This document shows, piece after piece, positions 1 through 5,176 of a stretch of DNA of 5,176 nt; positions within the stretch are counted from its first letter, which is position 1, and every line of letters starts with the position of its first letter. Location: positions 1 to 5,176 of IMG/VR virus record IMGVR_UViG_3300045988_003406; one strand, 5' to 3'. A program made the position numbers and the translations under genes. Below the pieces are notes generated by a model. The model was not told where the DNA came from, did not search any database, and worked only from the letters and a program-made list of their open reading frames with translations. Origin of the DNA: a virus.

Positions 1-127
1 CTGGTATAGCTCGGCAATGGTATGAAGATCATCCAGGTATCTATGAGTATGACAGTATAAATTTGTCTACCAGTAAAGGCGGTATGAAGATACGTCCCCC
101 TAAGTATTTTGATAAGCTGTTTGATTT
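1..127. repeat. Terminal redundancy copy 1 (identical to 5050..5176). It marks the arbitrary break point of a circular 5049-nt genome
   Basis: Seen directly: the first 127 bases of the window recur exactly as its last 127 bases. The duplicated segment lies inside an uninterrupted reading frame (the rep C-terminus), as expected for an assembly overlap rather than a biological repeat. Confidence 0.9.
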
Positions 128-293
128 GGAGCAGCCTGGTGCTTTGGATGAGATCAAGGAGAAGCGTAAGCACTTTGCTGAACAGGCTAAGAAAGGTATG
201 ATGGCTCAAACTAATTTAACCTATGAGCAGCTGCTTAAGGTCAAGGAGGAGAGTTTTCATAATCGTATCAAAACATTGAAGCGTGAATTGTGA
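1..293 (+). CDS. VP4: C-terminal segment of the replication initiator protein (VP4-like Rep). It continues the ORF that starts at 4260 and ends at TGA 291..293
   Basis: The frame of 63..293 is the same frame as the open read-through from 4260 to the window end once the 5049-nt circular offset is applied (63 corresponds to 5112). Track ORF 63..293 is therefore only the tail of rep, and its TTG 'start' is internal. Full rep = 4260..5049 joined to 1..293 = 1083 nt, about 360 aa. Confidence 0.85.
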   Translation, partial: GIARQWYEDHPGIYEYDSINLSTSKGGMKIRPPKYFDKLFDLEQPGALDEIKEKRKHFAEQAKKGMMAQTNLTYEQLLKVKEESFHNRIKTLKREL

Positions 294-307
294 AAGGAGT
301 TTTTGTT

Positions 308-421
308 ATGGCAAAGCGTCAGCCCCGAAGTCAGGATAGGCAGGTGTTTCGGCATACTGCTATCAATGCAAAGAGGATTAATGTAAATCCTAAAGTTTAT
401 CGTGGAGGTATACGGATGTGA
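308..421 (+). CDS. Small, highly basic 37-aa protein (MAKRQPRSQDRQVFRHTAINAKRINVNPKVYRGGIRM). It is a candidate DNA-binding/packaging protein analogous to phiX174 J and gokushovirus ORF8
   Basis: ATG at 308 follows AAGGAG (294..299) with an 8-nt spacer. The product has 10 Arg/Lys in 37 aa and no acidic bias. It sits immediately after the rep stop, and its TGA (419..421) overlaps the next GTG start (418). It is not in the ORF track, presumably because it is below the length cutoff. Small basic proteins at this position are typical of gokushoviruses, and the C-terminal RGG-x-R motif is recalled from ORF8-like proteins, though that is memory and not verified here. Confidence 0.5.
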   Translation: MAKRQPRSQDRQVFRHTAINAKRINVNPKVYRGGIRM

Positions 422-639
422 GAGACATAGTTGAGGAAAATGCGATTAGGACATTTCGTGGTTTCTTAGAGCGTCAAGGTTTCATTGACATCTCTATTCG
501 TCGTGGTCGTGAGTTTGGTAGGTTTGTTTGTACTGCTTATGACCCTTTCGACTGTAAGGTCTTTTCCCGTGAGTATGATGTTTCGGAGATGCAGTGTATT
601 ACCCATGCTAACAAGATTTTTTGGAGGTATTTCAGATGA
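418..639 (+). CDS. Hypothetical 73-aa protein of unknown function
   Basis: GTG 418 is preceded by GGAGGT (404..409) with an 8-nt spacer. Third codon positions are strongly T-biased, as in the confident genes. Its stop TGA (637..639) overlaps the ATG of the next gene (ATGA). The alternative-frame ORF 485..670 lacks this codon bias. Confidence 0.5.
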   Translation: MRDIVEENAIRTFRGFLERQGFIDISIRRGREFGRFVCTAYDPFDCKVFSREYDVSEMQCITHANKIFWRYFR

Positions 640-899
640 ATTTTGGAGTTTATGCTATTCGCGATGTTAAGTCTGGTTTTATGTCTCCGACCGTCGAGGT
701 CAACAATGAGGTAGCTATTCGTAATTTTGCCTATGCTGTGCTGCATAATGAGATGTTTGATTCGTTTGCGTCTGATTACTCGTTTTATCGGATTGGTGAT
801 TTTGACACAGATACTGGTATCCTTAAGCCTTATGCTCCCCCTGTGTTTTTGCTCGAGGCTAGGGCTACTGCCCGCAAGGAGGTGAAAGGTGATGAGTAA
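636..899 (+). CDS. Conserved small microvirus protein, 87 aa, VP5-like/non-structural, function unknown
   Basis: ATG 636 is preceded by GGAGGT (623..628) with a 7-nt spacer. The track ORF begins at an upstream in-frame TTG at 621, but the SD supports 636. The product MNFGVYAIRD...FYRIGDFDTDTGIL carries the 'YAIRD' and 'F/LYRIG-FD--TG-L' motifs, which I recognise from a small protein family recurrent in gut and gokushovirus genomes. That recognition is from memory, not from a search. The stop TAA 897..899 overlaps the VP3 start (ATGAGTAA). Confidence 0.6.
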   Translation: MNFGVYAIRDVKSGFMSPTVEVNNEVAIRNFAYAVLHNEMFDSFASDYSFYRIGDFDTDTGILKPYAPPVFLLEARATARKEVKGDE

Positions 900-1392
900 T
901 TTTGAGACAAGGTATCGACCCCAGCGACATTTTTATAGTGGTCATGGTGATCCTGTTAAGGTGCTTTATAGTCCTGAGTTCGATAAGAATGGTGTAATGT
1001 CTCTTAAAAAGTCTGGCCGTGAGAATCTGTATGACTATATCCAGTCTCATCGTGATAGTGTGGATATTCACAAAATCCTTCAGCGTTTCGAAGAAGGTGA
1101 CGTGGCTGCCCTTTCTAAGGTCCAAGGTCAGTTTGGTGATTTCTCCCAGTTCCCCAAGACTTATGCCGAGATGCTTAATCAGGTGATCGAGGGCGAGAAT
1201 GCTTTTAATAATCTTCCACTTGAAATTCGTGAGAAGTTTGGCCATAGTTTCCAGCAGTGGCTTGCTACTGCCGGTTCTGATGAGTGGTCCGAAAAAATGG
1301 GCTTTCGTCCTACGCCTGCAGGCGTGGACAACCCGTCCCCCGAAGGGGCGCAAGCCCCTTCCTTTGAACAACAGAAAGAAGGTGTTGAATAA
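892..1392 (+). CDS. VP3: Internal scaffolding protein (gokushovirus VP3-like), 166 aa
   Basis: AAGGAGGTG at 877..885 sits 6 nt upstream of ATG 892; the track start GTG 889 is in frame 1 codon upstream. The product contains 'ENLYDYIQSHRDSVDIHKILQRFEEGD' and 'KTYAEMLNQVIEGENAFNNLPLEIREKF', which match the conserved core of gokushovirus VP3 scaffolding proteins (pattern ...IQS-KDS-DI--IL-R...GD... known from Chlamydia/Bdellovibrio microvirus VP3). The stop TAA (1390..1392) overlaps the VP1 ATG (TAATG). Confidence 0.8.
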   Translation: MSNFETRYRPQRHFYSGHGDPVKVLYSPEFDKNGVMSLKKSGRENLYDYIQSHRDSVDIHKILQRFEEGDVAALSKVQGQFGDFSQFPKTYAEMLNQVIEGENAFNNLPLEIREKFGHSFQQWLATAGSDEWSEKMGFRPTPAGVDNPSPEGAQAPSFEQQKEGVE

Positions 1393-3062
1393 TGTCCAGG
1401 AATGCGAATACACGCTTTGCACTGAATCCTACTAATCTTGATATTTCTCGGTCTAAATTTAACCGGAATCATTCGCTTAAGACTTCGTTTAACGTTGGTG
1501 ACGTAGTGCCGTTTTATGTTGATGAGGTATTGCCAGGTGATACTTTCCAGCTTAAAACGTCTCTTGTTGCTCGTATGCAGACGCTTATTACTCCTATGAT
1601 GGATAATATTTATCTGGATACGTATTTTTTCTTCGTTCCTAACCGTCTCACCTGGAATCATTGGAAGGAGTTTAATGGTGAAAATACTCAAAGCGCTTGG
1701 TACCCTTCTGTTGAGTATTCGGTCCCTCAGCTCACAGCACCGGCTACTTCTGGTTGGTCTATCGGTACTCTTGCTGATTATTTTGGTATTCCTACCGGAA
1801 TCTCTAATCTCAGTGTTAACGCGCTTCCTTTCCGAGCTTATGCCCTTATCATGAATGAGTGGTTCAGAGATGAAAATTTGTCTGATCCTCTCTCTGTGCC
1901 TGTCGATGATGCTACTGTCGTTGGTGTTAATACTGGCAATTACATTACTGACGTAGCTAAAGGTGGTCTTCCGTTTAAGGCTGCTAAGTATCACGACTAT
2001 TTCACTAGTTGTTTGCCAGCGCCGCAGAAAGGTCCGGATGTTACTATTCCGGTTGCCGATATTGGTAATGCTCCTGTTGTGCCTTTGTCTGCTAATGTTC
2101 CTACTTCTTTGTTTACTGGTCAGGCTTATAATGCTGTAAGACTTGATGGTTCTTCTTTTTCTGGTTCTGGTACTTATGGTATTGGATTTAATTTGGCTGA
2201 TGGTTCTCAAGTAGATTTTGGTGGTTCTACTGCAGGTAATTCAACTAATAGGACAGTGATTTCAAATTTGTGGGCTGTTCAGTCTGGTGGTGCTGCCGCT
2301 GCTACTATCAATCAGCTTCGTATGGCTTTTCAAATCCAGAAACTTTACGAGCGTGACGCCCGTGGTGGTACTCGGTATATCGAGATTCTAAAATCTCACT
2401 TTGGCGTTACGAGCCCAGACGCGCGTCTACAGCGGCCTGAATACCTCGGAGGTAATCGGATACCCATTAACATCAATCAGGTCGTACAGAGCTCTGCAAC
2501 GGCTACTGAGGGCACTCCGCTTGGTGATACCGCTGCTTTCTCTCTCACTACAGATACGCATGGCGACTTTATCAAGTCTTTTGTGGAGCATGGCTTCATC
2601 ATTGGCGTGATGGTTGCTCGCTATGACCATACCTACCAGCAAGGTCTTGAGCGCTTTTGGTCTCGCAAGGACCGCTTCGATTATTATTGGCCTGTTTTCG
2701 CTAATATCGGTGAGCAGGCAGTTCTTAACAAGGAGATTTATGCTCAAGGCAATGAAAAGGACGATGAGGTATTTGGTTATCAGGAAGCTTGGGCTGATTA
2801 TCGTTATAAGCCTTCTCGTGTTACTGGTGAAATGCGTTCCTCTGCGCCTACTTCGCTTGATGTTTGGCATTTGGCTGATGAGTACACTCAGTTACCTACT
2901 TTGTCTGATTCTTGGATTCGCGAGGATAAATCCAATGTTGACCGTGTTCTGGCTGTGACTTCTGCTGTGTCCAATCAGATGTTTGCTGATATCTATGTAC
3001 AGTGTGAGGCTACTCGGCCTATGCCTGTGTACTCTATTCCTGGTCTTATTGATCATCACTGA
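1392..3062 (+). CDS. VP1: Major capsid protein (Microviridae F/VP1 family, gokushovirus-type), 556 aa
   Basis: It is the longest ORF. The N-terminal region 'RSKFNRNHSLKTSFNVGDVVPFYVDEVLPGDTF...ITPMMDNIYLDTYFFFVPNRLTWNHW' is the hallmark of microvirus major capsid proteins. The more C-terminal 'INQLRMAFQIQKLYERDARGGTRYIEILKSHFGV...PEYLGG' is also hallmark. A Gly/Ser-rich variable insertion (about nt 2013..2306) sits where gokushovirus VP1 carries its large surface loop. Confidence 0.95.
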   Translation: MSRNANTRFALNPTNLDISRSKFNRNHSLKTSFNVGDVVPFYVDEVLPGDTFQLKTSLVARMQTLITPMMDNIYLDTYFFFVPNRLTWNHWKEFNGENTQSAWYPSVEYSVPQLTAPATSGWSIGTLADYFGIPTGISNLSVNALPFRAYALIMNEWFRDENLSDPLSVPVDDATVVGVNTGNYITDVAKGGLPFKAAKYHDYFTSCLPAPQKGPDVTIPVADIGNAPVVPLSANVPTSLFTGQAYNAVRLDGSSFSGSGTYGIGFNLADGSQVDFGGSTAGNSTNRTVISNLWAVQSGGAAAATINQLRMAFQIQKLYERDARGGTRYIEILKSHFGVTSPDARLQRPEYLGGNRIPININQVVQSSATATEGTPLGDTAAFSLTTDTHGDFIKSFVEHGFIIGVMVARYDHTYQQGLERFWSRKDRFDYYWPVFANIGEQAVLNKEIYAQGNEKDDEVFGYQEAWADYRYKPSRVTGEMRSSAPTSLDVWHLADEYTQLPTLSDSWIREDKSNVDRVLAVTSAVSNQMFADIYVQCEATRPMPVYSIPGLIDHH

Positions 3063-3098
3063 TGGATCAATGTAATTTCGAATTTTTCTTTATAGGAC

Positions 3099-3117
3099 GC
3101 GCGCCCCTGCGCTTTTT
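3099..3117 (+). terminator. Candidate intrinsic terminator downstream of VP1: a short GC-only hairpin (GCGC-loop-GCGC) followed by TTTTT
   Basis: Seen in sequence: gcgcgcccctgcgc followed by ttttt, 37 nt after the VP1 stop. The stem is only 4-5 bp, so it is weak. A nested GACG...CGTC pairing (3096..3123) is also possible. Confidence 0.3.
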
Positions 3118-3137
3118 GACGTCTTGTAGAGGATGCA

Positions 3138-3161
3138 AAGGAGGGGGCAGGGGCCCTCCTT
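3138..3161 (+). promoter_or_regulatory. Stable hairpin: 8-bp stem AAGGAGGG/CCCTCCTT with an 8-nt G-rich loop, in the VP1-VP2 intergenic region
   Basis: Seen in sequence: aaggaggg ggcagggg ccctcctt. One arm is a perfect Shine-Dalgarno-like AAGGAGG that is not followed by a start codon at proper spacing. The real VP2 SD (AAGGAG 3173..3178) is downstream. Possible roles are RNA stability/attenuator element, decoy SD, or a ssDNA hairpin for complementary-strand synthesis priming. Confidence 0.45.
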
Positions 3162-3184
3162 GGTCGTTATGAAAGGAGATATTT

Positions 3185-4158
3185 ATGGCTGTTAATTCTG
3201 CTCGTACTGGAGCTATTGTAGACGGCTCTTCGAGGTTTCTTGCTAATGCTGGTAATGCAATGAAGCTTAATTCTATTGATTCCCGGCTTGGTACTGTGTA
3301 TAATACATTAAGTTCAATTACTGGTGCAAATACAGCGGCTTCGGCAAAAGAGGCTTCCCAGTTGCGTGATTGGCAGTCGGAGCAAGCTCGCCTGGCGAGA
3401 GAGTTTAATTCCCAGGAAGCTGCGAAAAACCGTGATTGGCAAAAAATGATGAGCGATACGGCTCATCAAAGGGAGGTTGCAGACCTTGTTAAAGCTGGCT
3501 TAATCCTGTTCTTTCCGTTACTGGTGGTAACGGTGCTGCTGTTTCTTCCGGTGCCACGGCTAGCACATCAGCTCCTTCAGGTGCTATGGGTCATATTGAT
3601 AGTAGTGGTGCTTCTGCTTTTGTGGCTTTTCTTGGTGGTCTACTTAACCAGATGACTCAATTGGAGACGGCTCGTGTTAGTGCAGAGAGTAATCAAGCGA
3701 TTGCGGACAAATATACAGCGATGTCTAAGTACACAGCGGATTTACAGGCTCAAACTCAACTTAATACTGCTACGATTAGTGCTATGGCTTCGCGCTATGC
3801 AGCGGACGCTCATCTTTCTGGTGCCTATGCTTCCGCGGCTGCTACTAAGGCCTCGGCTGCTATTCATGCTGCTGCGCAAAAGTACGGTTCGGATGTGGCT
3901 GCGATGACGCAGAAGGAGATCGCTCAGTTTAATGCTGATGTTAATAAGGATCTTCAGGAAGCTGGATTTAAACAGCAGTTTGATATTAAGTCTGCTTTTC
4001 CGGAAAATGGTTGGCAGTATGCCAATTCTTTAGGTGATTGGTTTTCTGGTAATTCTTCTGGTCGTGGTTTTACTGGTACTTTGGATTCTATTTTTTCGAT
4101 GTTTAATGGAGGTAGTTCTTCGAAGGGTTCGTTCCGTGCTGGTGGTTCTGGTCGTTAA
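3185..4158 (+). CDS. VP2: Minor capsid/DNA pilot protein (VP2-like), about 324 aa, interrupted by a 1-nt frameshift at about 3500..3504 (track ORFs 3185..3655 and 3586..4158)
   Basis: AAGGAG at 3173..3178 sits 6 nt before ATG 3185. The first frame encodes '...DWQKMMSDTAHQREVADLVKAGL' and then degenerates into a poly-hydrophobic out-of-frame tail. The -1-shifted frame, which re-reads A3502, is open from 3493. It continues 'NPVLSVTGGNGAAVSSGAT...' through a Gly/Ala/Ser-rich region to a Gly-rich C-terminus. The fused 'NTA-QR-VADLKAAGLNP' is the conserved VP2 motif of gokushoviruses. The shift falls at the A-run in 'ggcttaatcct' (expected 'ttaaatcct'). Confidence 0.8.
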
Positions 4159-4162
4159 CGAC
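4151..4162. other. Perfect 12-bp palindrome GTCGTTAACGAC spanning the VP2 stop codon
   Basis: Seen in sequence; it is its own reverse complement and is centred on GTTAAC. Function unknown; it could be a protein-binding site or a minor hairpin. Confidence 0.5.
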
Positions 4163-4180
4163 TGAGGCTGGAAGGCGTTT

Positions 4181-4221
4181 CAGTGGGAACCAATACATTC
4201 TTGATATATTGGTTCCCACTG
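4181..4221 (+). other. Perfect 15-bp inverted repeat (CAGTGGGAACCAATA / TATTGGTTCCCACTG) with an 11-nt loop 'cattcttgata'. Candidate rolling-circle (+)-strand origin or other cis-acting replication/packaging hairpin
   Basis: Seen in sequence: 4181..4195 is the exact reverse complement of 4207..4221. The element lies in the 101-nt VP2-rep intergenic region, 39 nt upstream of the rep GTG start. Its loop/3'-arm junction reads CTTGATAT (4200..4207), identical to the 8-nt core of the phiX174 gene-A nick site (CAACTTG^ATATTAATAAC, quoted from memory). Confidence 0.55.
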
Positions 4222-4259
4222 ACACCACCAGATTTCCGAGTACGGAAAGAGGTGAAAAA

Positions 4260-5176
4260 GTGAGTTGTTTCAACCCTTTGAAGGCATTTGAGATTGGTAC
4301 TTTGCCTTCTGGAAAGAAAGATTTGAAAATAGTACCTTATGGTGTGCATCATTTGGAGATGGATTCGCGTGGAAAGATTATCCCGGTTGGGACTTCGGAT
4401 GTGTCTGCCTATCGTGTGAAGACCTTTACCAAGTGGTCGGAAATTCCTTGTGGTTACTGTGAAGGTTGTCGTATTGCCCGTTCTCGTGAATGGGCTAATC
4501 GTTGCATGATGGAGTTGGAGTATCATAAATCGGCCTATTTTGTTACTTTGACTTATGATGATGACCATGTGCCTGTAAGTTATTATTCTGACCCTGATAC
4601 TGGCGAGGCTATGAAGTCTTTGACACTTCGGAAACGTGACTTCCAGCTTTTTATGAAACGGCTTCGAAAGGCTTTCCCGGATTGTCATATTCGTTATTAT
4701 GCTTGTGGTGAGTATGGCTCTCAGACGTTGCGGCCTCACTATCATGCAATTATTTATGGTCTCGAGCTTGATGACCTAGAGGTCTATCGTGATGTCCGGC
4801 GTGGTGATGTCGGATATCAGTATTTTACATCTAAGTCTTTACAAGATGTTTGGTCTGTGATAGCTTTAGAGCAAGCAAAGTATAACTCCCCTTGCAGGAT
4901 ACCCCTTGGATATGTCTTGGTTGGTAATGTTACCTGGGAGACTTGTGCCTATACTGCCAGGTATGTGCTCAAGAAGCATTATGGTGCCGAATCTCAAGTG
5001 TATGAGGAGTTTAATGTCGAACCGGAATTTGTGCTTATGTCCCGTCGGCCTGGTATAGCTCGGCAATGGTATGAAGATCATCCAGGTATCTATGAGTATG
5101 ACAGTATAAATTTGTCTACCAGTAAAGGCGGTATGAAGATACGTCCCCCTAAGTATTTTGATAAGCTGTTTGATTT
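4260..5176 (+). CDS. VP4: Replication initiator protein (VP4-like, HUH superfamily rolling-circle Rep). N-terminal 306 codons in this window; the ORF runs off the 3' end and completes at 293 via the circular junction
   Basis: GTG 4260 is preceded by AGAGGTG (4247..4253) with a 6-nt spacer. The N-terminus M-S-C-F-N-P matches the conserved 'M-x-C-x-x-P' start of gokushovirus VP4. A Cys cluster 'PCGYCEGCR...WANRC' follows. Motif 1 is 'FVTLTYDD'. The HUH motif is 'RPHYHAIIYG'. The catalytic two-tyrosine motif 'CAYTARYVLKK' is comparable to phiX A 'YVAKYVNKK'. There is no stop from 4260 to 5176. The ORF track misses this gene because it has no in-window stop and a GTG start. Confidence 0.9.
   Translation, partial: MSCFNPLKAFEIGTLPSGKKDLKIVPYGVHHLEMDSRGKIIPVGTSDVSAYRVKTFTKWSEIPCGYCEGCRIARSREWANRCMMELEYHKSAYFVTLTYDDDHVPVSYYSDPDTGEAMKSLTLRKRDFQLFMKRLRKAFPDCHIRYYACGEYGSQTLRPHYHAIIYGLELDDLEVYRDVRRGDVGYQYFTSKSLQDVWSVIALEQAKYNSPCRIPLGYVLVGNVTWETCAYTARYVLKKHYGAESQVYEEFNVEPEFVLMSRRPGIARQWYEDHPGIYEYDSINLSTSKGGMKIRPPKYFDKLFD
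5050..5176. repeat. Terminal redundancy copy 2 (identical to 1..127)
   Basis: Exact 127-nt identity with the window start. Confidence 0.9.

Follow-up and report, generated by a model that had tools for sequence, protein, structure and literature searches.

A covarying hairpin with a CTTG loop and a box at fixed distance as the probable viral-strand replication origin of gokushoviruses

The window analysed here is the whole stretch of 5,176 nt at positions 1 to 5,176 of IMG/VR record IMGVR_UViG_3300045988_003406. It holds a complete Microviridae genome of gokushovirus type, whose genes are all on the + strand (Table 1). Microviridae package the strand that has the same sense as their mRNAs, and the + strand of the window is therefore the viral strand. 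The first 127 nt recur exactly at the other end as a terminal direct repeat (1-127 = 5050-5176), so the true circle measures 5049 nt. This repeat is apparently the overlap of a circular assembly, and a naive join from 5176 to 1 across it produces a false frameshift in Rep. A sequence-only reading of this DNA had placed Rep at 4260 to 293. The gene does run across the circle, with its extent amended for the repeat. Its start codon is a GTG, preceded by a ribosome-binding site, AGAGGTGA. Upstream of the spacer, both pieces of VP2 match phrog_5158, at consecutive profile positions (19-102 and 130-308). The split is a frameshift, either genuine or caused by a sequencing error.

Table 1. Features of the window, probable origin elements of four other genomes and a second hairpin of relatives. 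A caret (^) marks the cut, predicted or known, here and in the text.
Genome	Feature	Position	Strand	Remarks
Window	ORF5/DNA-binding protein	621-899	+	
Window	Scaffold VP3	889-1392	+	
Window	VP1 capsid	1392-3062	+	Pfam Phage_F, 1.5e-172
Window	VP2/DNA pilot gene, upstream of the candidate origin	3185-4158	+	two overlapping frames, 3185-3655 and 3586-4158
Window	5' arm, TCAGTGGGAACCAATA	4180-4195	+	perfect complement of 4207-4222; sequence varies among genomes, always complementary
Window	Loop, CATTCTTGATA	4196-4206	+	fold
Window	Nick-site core, CTTG^ATAT	4200-4207	+	identical to phiX174 4302-4309; cut G4203^A4204 predicted by analogy
Window	3' arm, TATTGGTTCCCACTGA	4207-4222	+	position equivalent to the AT-rich spacer of the phiX174 origin
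Window	Box, TGACACC	4220-4226	+	G4221 = +18 from the predicted nick; putative Rep-binding part
Window	Weaker second hairpin, CACC...TTTCCG-AGTA-CGGAAA...GGTG	4226-4254	+	fold prediction; overlaps the rep ribosome-binding site
Window	Rep (VP4)	4260-5176 then 128-293 (= 4260-5049 + 1-293)	+	360 aa
Chp2	Origin element	2904-2941	coding strand	predicted cut G2925^A2926
SpV4	Origin element	512-544	coding strand	predicted cut G529^T530
Chp1	Origin element	2750-2777	coding strand	predicted cut G2765^G2766
phiMH2K	Origin element	3297-3335	coding strand	loop 18 nt; predicted cut G3318^T3319
Relatives	TGTATGGGG...CCCCATACA hairpin	L023 1388, L033 1578, L034 2254, L040 2757, L043 252, L052 1345, L053 899		

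The intergenic spacer between VP2 and rep (4159-4259) contains a perfect 16-bp palindrome with an 11-nt loop. The sequence-only reading had described it as a 15-bp stem, 4181-4195 with 4207-4221, around a loop at 4196-4206. The coordinates are exact, as 4181-4195 (CAGTGGGAACCAATA) is the precise reverse complement of 4207-4221 (TATTGGTTCCCACTG), but an outermost T4180-A4222 pair brings the perfect stem to 16 bp. With two mismatches allowed, the arms grow to 22 nt (4177-4198/4204-4225). Two additional A-T pairs can form within the loop (4197-4205 and 4198-4204), leaving TCTTG single-stranded. That this is the only long perfect inverted repeat of the genome, as had been claimed, was confirmed: the runners-up are 17 nt at 76%, and perfect repeats reach at most 10 nt. 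The single-stranded DNA fold of the region gave z = -7.1 and -7.6 against dinucleotide shuffles, and none of 200 shuffles was equally stable. The weaker hairpin that follows is doubtful as a part of the origin, since the closest relatives do not maintain its inner stem. It may have arisen by chance or may serve local translational control.

At the junction of loop and 3' arm, the + strand carries the 8-mer CTTGATAT (4200-4207). As stand-alone evidence this 8-mer is not significant. A second copy lies within VP1 (1437-1444), and at least two copies occur in 6 of 200 shuffles. It gains meaning from its position in the loop and from its conservation. The sequence-only reading had likened the 8-mer to the core of the phiX174 origin, and the record agrees: NC_001422 reads CAACTTGATATTAATAACACTATAGACCAC at 4299-4328, with rep_origin annotated at 4306. 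The phiX174 origin is also, as that reading stated, inside gene A and unstructured (MFE 0). The cut there has been restated as G4305^A4306, and synonymous changes in codons Q107-D115 of protein A are detrimental (bioRxiv 10.64898/2026.07.25.740675). By our count, these codons (CAA...GAC) are positions 1-27 of the phiX174 origin.

The match between the two origins has two points. The 30-nt ori+ of phiX174 and G4 (CAACTTG^ATATTAATAACACTATAGACCAC, cut by gene A protein) shares (A)CTTG^AT with the window, on the viral strand in both. In phiX174, CTTG is followed by 17 nt and then by GACCAC at +18. In the window, CTTG is followed by 17 nt and then by GACACC at 4221-4226. The box reads TGACACC in the window and TAGACCAC in phiX174. 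To bind duplex DNA, protein A requires the 3' part of the phiX174 origin. The surroundings differ. The phiX174 origin is located inside a gene and has an unstructured, AT-rich spacer, whereas the window element is intergenic and, in gokushoviruses, the spacer is formed by one arm (3') of a perfect hairpin of 8-17 bp, with the other arm (5') preceding the core.

The initiators of phiX174 and the window are homologous, each with an HUH motif and two tyrosines four residues apart. In the window Rep, motif 1 is FVTLTY at 94, the HUH motif is H160-Y-H162, and Y231-T-A-R-Y235 supplies the Y-x-x-x-Y pair, with Y231 and Y235 the predicted catalytic residues. The likeness to protein A that had been noted from the motifs is borne out by BLASTP, which aligned motif 1 through HUH at E = 1e-4. 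Rep also matches Pfam REP_ORF2-G2P (PF23343) at 9e-14. Kazlauskas et al. found Bullavirinae Reps to be similar only to Gokushovirinae Reps and reported Rep monophyly (PMC6668415). Judged from the sequences, the comparison shows that the predicted nick site and its spacing survived the deep split between phiX174-like viruses and gokushoviruses, even though the Reps are now barely alignable.

A blastn search with 4100-4330 matched the hairpin itself (4183-4227), in unannotated DNA, in most of 65 Microviridae records that are otherwise unalignable in this region. Two samples were drawn by protein, making the selection independent of the hairpin. The first consisted of 80 whole IMG/VR contigs chosen by VP1 similarity. 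In 71 of the 80, the + strand has a hairpin whose loop contains CTTG and whose stem measures at least 7 bp, and it is the longest-stem hairpin of the contig in 57 of those 71. The nine contigs that lack it are the shortest (3.5-4.8 kb) and are probably partial. The second sample was of 22 complete GenBank genomes, 18 of them spread over the 3,821 Rep-positive records in tblastn rank order, to which Chp1, Chp2, SpV4 and phiMH2K were added. Here the element lies on the coding strand in 20 of 22 and on the opposite strand in one; the remaining genome, a Rhizobium phage, has only a doubtful match. When the loops of the three longest hairpins of each of these genomes were compared, CTTG was the commonest 4-mer (18 of 22), and its reverse complement was found in 3.

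We then anchored 21 genomes on the predicted nick. CTTG is kept in 20 of them, the single exception being CTCG. Its columns carry 2.0 (C), 2.0 (T), 1.7 (T) and 2.0 (G) bits, and the stem columns 0.1-0.8. The first base 3' of the predicted cut is A in 13 genomes, T in 7 and G in 1. The conserved core is (A/T)CTTG^(A/T)T. The proposal that the nick-site core is conserved across diverged Microviridae holds for this core and fails for the full 8-mer, in which ATAT is not kept. The same loop motif is found in phages of Chlamydia, Spiroplasma, Bdellovibrio and gut bacteria, and single-stranded folds of the window, Chp2, SpV4, phiMH2K and Chp1 elements gave z of -3.1 to -7.6. In the 19 annotated genomes sampled, the element sits between annotated genes, with one overlap with a hypothetical ORF; in the SpV4 record, the capsid gene is the sole annotation. 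It does not always adjoin rep. The predicted conservation of a hairpin with covarying stem and invariant loop is upheld for the hairpin, the covariation and CTTG, and not for the position beside rep.

Two assemblies carry the element in unusual orientation. In KX513877 (975-1006), the entire module, comprising the hairpin, TACTTG^AT and GGTGACACC, is opposite to all annotated genes and adjoins a CGCA/CGCG low-complexity tract. It is the only reverse-strand case among the 22 sampled genomes, and reflects either a mis-assembly or a real inversion. Contig L009 has the origin hairpin and its flanks twice, at 1356-1392 and 4778-4814, in opposite orientation and with the second copy near the contig end. 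The contig has the appearance of a chimeric assembly, an inverted duplication broken at the hairpin.

Different clades have stems of unrelated sequence, for example GTGGGAACCAAT, CAGCCCCATTAC, CACTCCGGCCAGTTAC, CTAGCGTATAACAG and AGCACACTTAC. From 13 seeds, a covariance model was made that recovered the element across loci. In 41 distinct aligned sequences, which were fitted to this model of Watson-Crick seeds and include reverse-strand rows, 98.7% of cells are paired and all 11 of the 11 modelled pairs change on both sides. None of 500 shuffles reached the observed values, and registers slid out of place paired in 31-39%. Wobble pairs of the G.T type make up 1 of 450 cells. Their near-absence fits pairing of a DNA dyad on both strands.

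The second part of the element emerged from the alignment on the G of CTTG. Information is high at -3 to 0 (C, T, T, G), drops to moderate values at +1, +2, +4 and +5, and stays low across the stem. High values return at +15 and at +17 to +20 (T, G, A, C), and most genomes still have A at +21 and C at +22. This is the TGACAC(C) box, which stands at +17/+18 from the predicted nick for stems of 8-17 bp and loops of 7-18 nt. Depending on the genome, it falls within the 3' arm, abuts the hairpin or lies up to 7 nt beyond it. A test blind to the hairpin gave the same spacing. On the + strand, CTTG-N17-GACA is present in 13 of the 22 spread genomes, with 4 more at N18, and in 69 of the 80 contigs of the VP1 sample. 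Other spacings give a background of about 1 of 22 genomes and 0-10 of 80 contigs, and the - strand has no peak at d = 17. Boxes are degenerate or shifted in Chp2, phiMH2K, Chp1 and MN862344. IMG/VR was also scanned for TCTTGAT-N14-TGACACC with no hairpin required; among the matches listed, a stem of at least 7 bp accompanies the motif in 38 of 62 loci of up to 7 kb, versus 1 of 55 longer loci.

Since the spacing of the box is linear and fixed, hairpin geometry is not needed for recognition. The constant distance between core and box suggests that Rep, like protein A, measures distance along the DNA, and a box outside the hairpin at fixed linear distance suggests that duplex DNA is what it recognizes. 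Because recognition needs no hairpin geometry, the analogy with phiX174 leaves the hairpin's own role unexplained. The hairpin probably exposes the core as a single strand through cruciform extrusion and re-forms in the displaced strand for termination.

Two independent features of a proven origin recur at this locus. They are on the expected strand, stand next to a homologous initiator and are under strong purifying selection. For these reasons we consider it highly probable that 4180-4226 is the Rep-dependent viral-strand (+) origin of rolling-circle replication. We are less confident that G4203^A4204 is the exact bond cut, a position predicted by analogy with phiX174. Against the origin reading count the variable base 3' of the predicted cut, the degenerate or shifted boxes of some genomes and the reversed module of KX513877. 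The origin would consist of two parts, a palindrome whose loop presents (A/T)CTTG^AT and a TGACACC box whose G lies 18 nt 3' of the cut. Rep, an HUH endonuclease, would bind the box in the supercoiled double-stranded replicative form. The palindrome would extrude as a cruciform, or melt, making the loop single-stranded (step 1). Tyr231 or Tyr235 would then cut G4203^A4204, joining Rep to the 5' phosphate of A4204, and the 3'-OH of G4203 would prime synthesis by host enzymes (step 2). After one turn, the regenerated hairpin of the displaced strand would be cut by the second tyrosine and the ends joined (step 3). The expected product is a circular + strand, for packaging or further replication.

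A conserved loop on a covarying stem is also expected of a complementary-strand (minus) origin, and this pattern alone does not discriminate between the two. At such a site, a hairpin in the incoming single-stranded DNA would be the point at which host RNA polymerase, primase or primosome starts the second strand. Known start sites for complementary strands include the minus origins of G4 and M13, the PriA site of phiX174 and plasmid ssoA. The element has the gross features of an sso, being intergenic and on the packaged strand. Its loop, however, matches the proven Rep cleavage site of phiX174 and its box matches at the same +18 spacing, neither of which a host priming site would be expected to copy. 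Host priming signals differ between phyla, yet the motif is identical across phages of Chlamydia, Spiroplasma, Bdellovibrio and gut bacteria. The position of the box, outside the hairpin and at a fixed linear distance, suggests recognition as duplex, and the strict Watson-Crick symmetry points to pairing on both strands. Motifs of the ssoA/G4 ori-c family (e.g. ssoA CS-6 TAGCGT) were absent from the window loop. We therefore regard a complementary-strand origin as an unlikely explanation of the element by itself, although the element may have a dual role, as both viral- and complementary-strand origin.

Comparable hairpins of reekeekee- and roodoodooviruses have been tentatively discussed as possible sites of complementary-strand initiation, with their function left open (Olo Ndela et al. 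2023, PMC9865509). By their description, which is the basis of the comparison made here, they resemble the gokushovirus element in belonging to Microviridae, in their intergenic position near rep, and in having a conserved loop and compensatory stem changes.

Transcription signals were also considered. The element could terminate transcription after VP2 in rho-independent fashion or stabilise the mRNA there; alternatively, it could be the promoter of the downstream gene, with TGACAC as a -35-like hexamer. It is intergenic, and TGACAC and TTGATA each resemble TTGACA. The stem, however, is followed by CACCACCAGATTTCC and not by a T-run, and a scan of 3900-4500 called no + strand terminator and found no + strand promoter at the hairpin site. 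An invariant loop is not a feature of terminators. In 19 of 21 genomes, a -10-like hexamer is absent at the spacing that a promoter would need, and the columns from +24 to +43 carry close to zero information. A transcription signal would also leave unexplained the fixed distance between box and loop motif, the near-total lack of G.U-type pairing, and conservation across hosts with different promoter types. We judge this reading very improbable. Being palindromic and intergenic, the element might also be a packaging or a recombination site, but packaging in phiX174 is coupled to origin-dependent synthesis and uses no separate signal. Least credible of all, together with packaging, is a dif-like XerCD recombination site for lysogeny, as proposed for some microviruses and reported in Microviridae-related Bacteroidetes proviruses (PMC3091885), since a real dif has conserved 11-nt arms and a 6-nt spacer, whereas here the arms are hypervariable, the spacer of 7-18 nt holds the conserved sequence, and the strictly lytic Chp2 and SpV4 have the element. 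Among known RNA families, the one hit on the palindrome was to a miRNA model, and it was rejected as sub-threshold (24.8 bits against a gathering score of 76).

The viral-strand origin proposed here can be compared with two other systems in which an HUH initiator acts on a hairpin, the CRESS-DNA viruses (geminiviruses and circoviruses), with the nonanucleotide TAATATT^AC, and the pT181-family plasmids, with their IR-II stem-loop origins. They share with the gokushovirus element a covarying stem, a conserved loop, a cut about 2 nt before the 3' arm (predicted here) and a likely need for extrusion from supercoiled DNA. The loop of CRESS viruses is unrelated, and their nonanucleotide, NANTATTAC, is not in the window loop. 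Unlike the CRESS and pT181 systems, the window Rep is of the two-tyrosine Microviridae type and has no helicase domain. No iterons were seen in the window origin, again unlike CRESS and pT181; a single box lies at a fixed distance 3' of the predicted cut.

The two-part layout may extend beyond gokushoviruses. Two Alpavirinae-like genomes of about 6.2 kb each have one intergenic + strand match with a weak hairpin or none, CCTTG^CT...CTGACAC at 6024 of MG945493 and ATACTTG^AT...AGTGACAC at 3919 of PP511712. The Rhizobium phage MN988475 has AGCTTG^AC...CTGACAG at one intergenic + strand site, 3237, just upstream of rep, likewise with a weak hairpin or none. These are matches to CTTG-N16-18-(T)GACA, for which the estimated chance is about 0.02 per strand per genome with a 6-nt box, and they come from three genomes only. 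As sequence matches, they hint at a family-wide layout. We propose tentatively, as a possibility that falls somewhat short of an even case, that the viral-strand origin ancestral to all Microviridae had the layout CTTG^-N17-(T)GAC(A)C, retained from phiX174-like viruses through gokushoviruses to the large Alpavirinae-like genomes and Rhizobium microviruses. The initiator would read it like a linear ruler. In gokushoviruses, the hairpin would have taken the place of the AT-rich spacer as a strand-opening device particular to that lineage. If this is true, the origins of thousands of uncultured microviruses could be located by a single rule.

Neither this element nor any origin of a gokushovirus was found described in a full-text literature search; the original Chp2, phiMH2K, SpV4 and Chp1 papers were outside its scope. 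The kind of element is already known, an HUH origin with its nick site in a hairpin loop and homology to phiX174, and this architecture appears to be new. Gokushoviruses are among the most abundant single-stranded DNA phages of gut and environmental viromes. The sequence rule, a hairpin with a CTTG loop and TGACAC 17-18 nt downstream, could give thousands of metagenomic genomes a zero coordinate and an annotation feature. It could also provide a precise substrate for Rep biochemistry, a start for phagemid and vector design, and a test for chimeric assemblies. A mechanistic question is raised as well, in that the same initiator fold works with an AT-rich spacer in one lineage and, on the reading preferred here, with a cruciform in the other.

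Other hairpins were encountered upstream of rep in relatives. Those with about 58-60% Rep identity have a second conserved hairpin, TGTATGGGG-GTACGATAT-CCCCATACA, whose loop ends in CGATAT (Table 1). About 40 nt separate it from rep downstream, and the CTTG hairpin precedes it by 210-260 nt. It was rejected as an alternative origin, because the genomes that have it also have the CTTG hairpin, which makes it a separate element. Another hairpin, TTTTAGCACTCT-CACTCTA-AGAGTGCTAAAA, is conserved in some relatives, where it precedes rep by about 270 nt (L025 1568-1598, L027 460-490, L046 2725-2757 and others). L048 has it together with a CTTG hairpin at another place in the genome.
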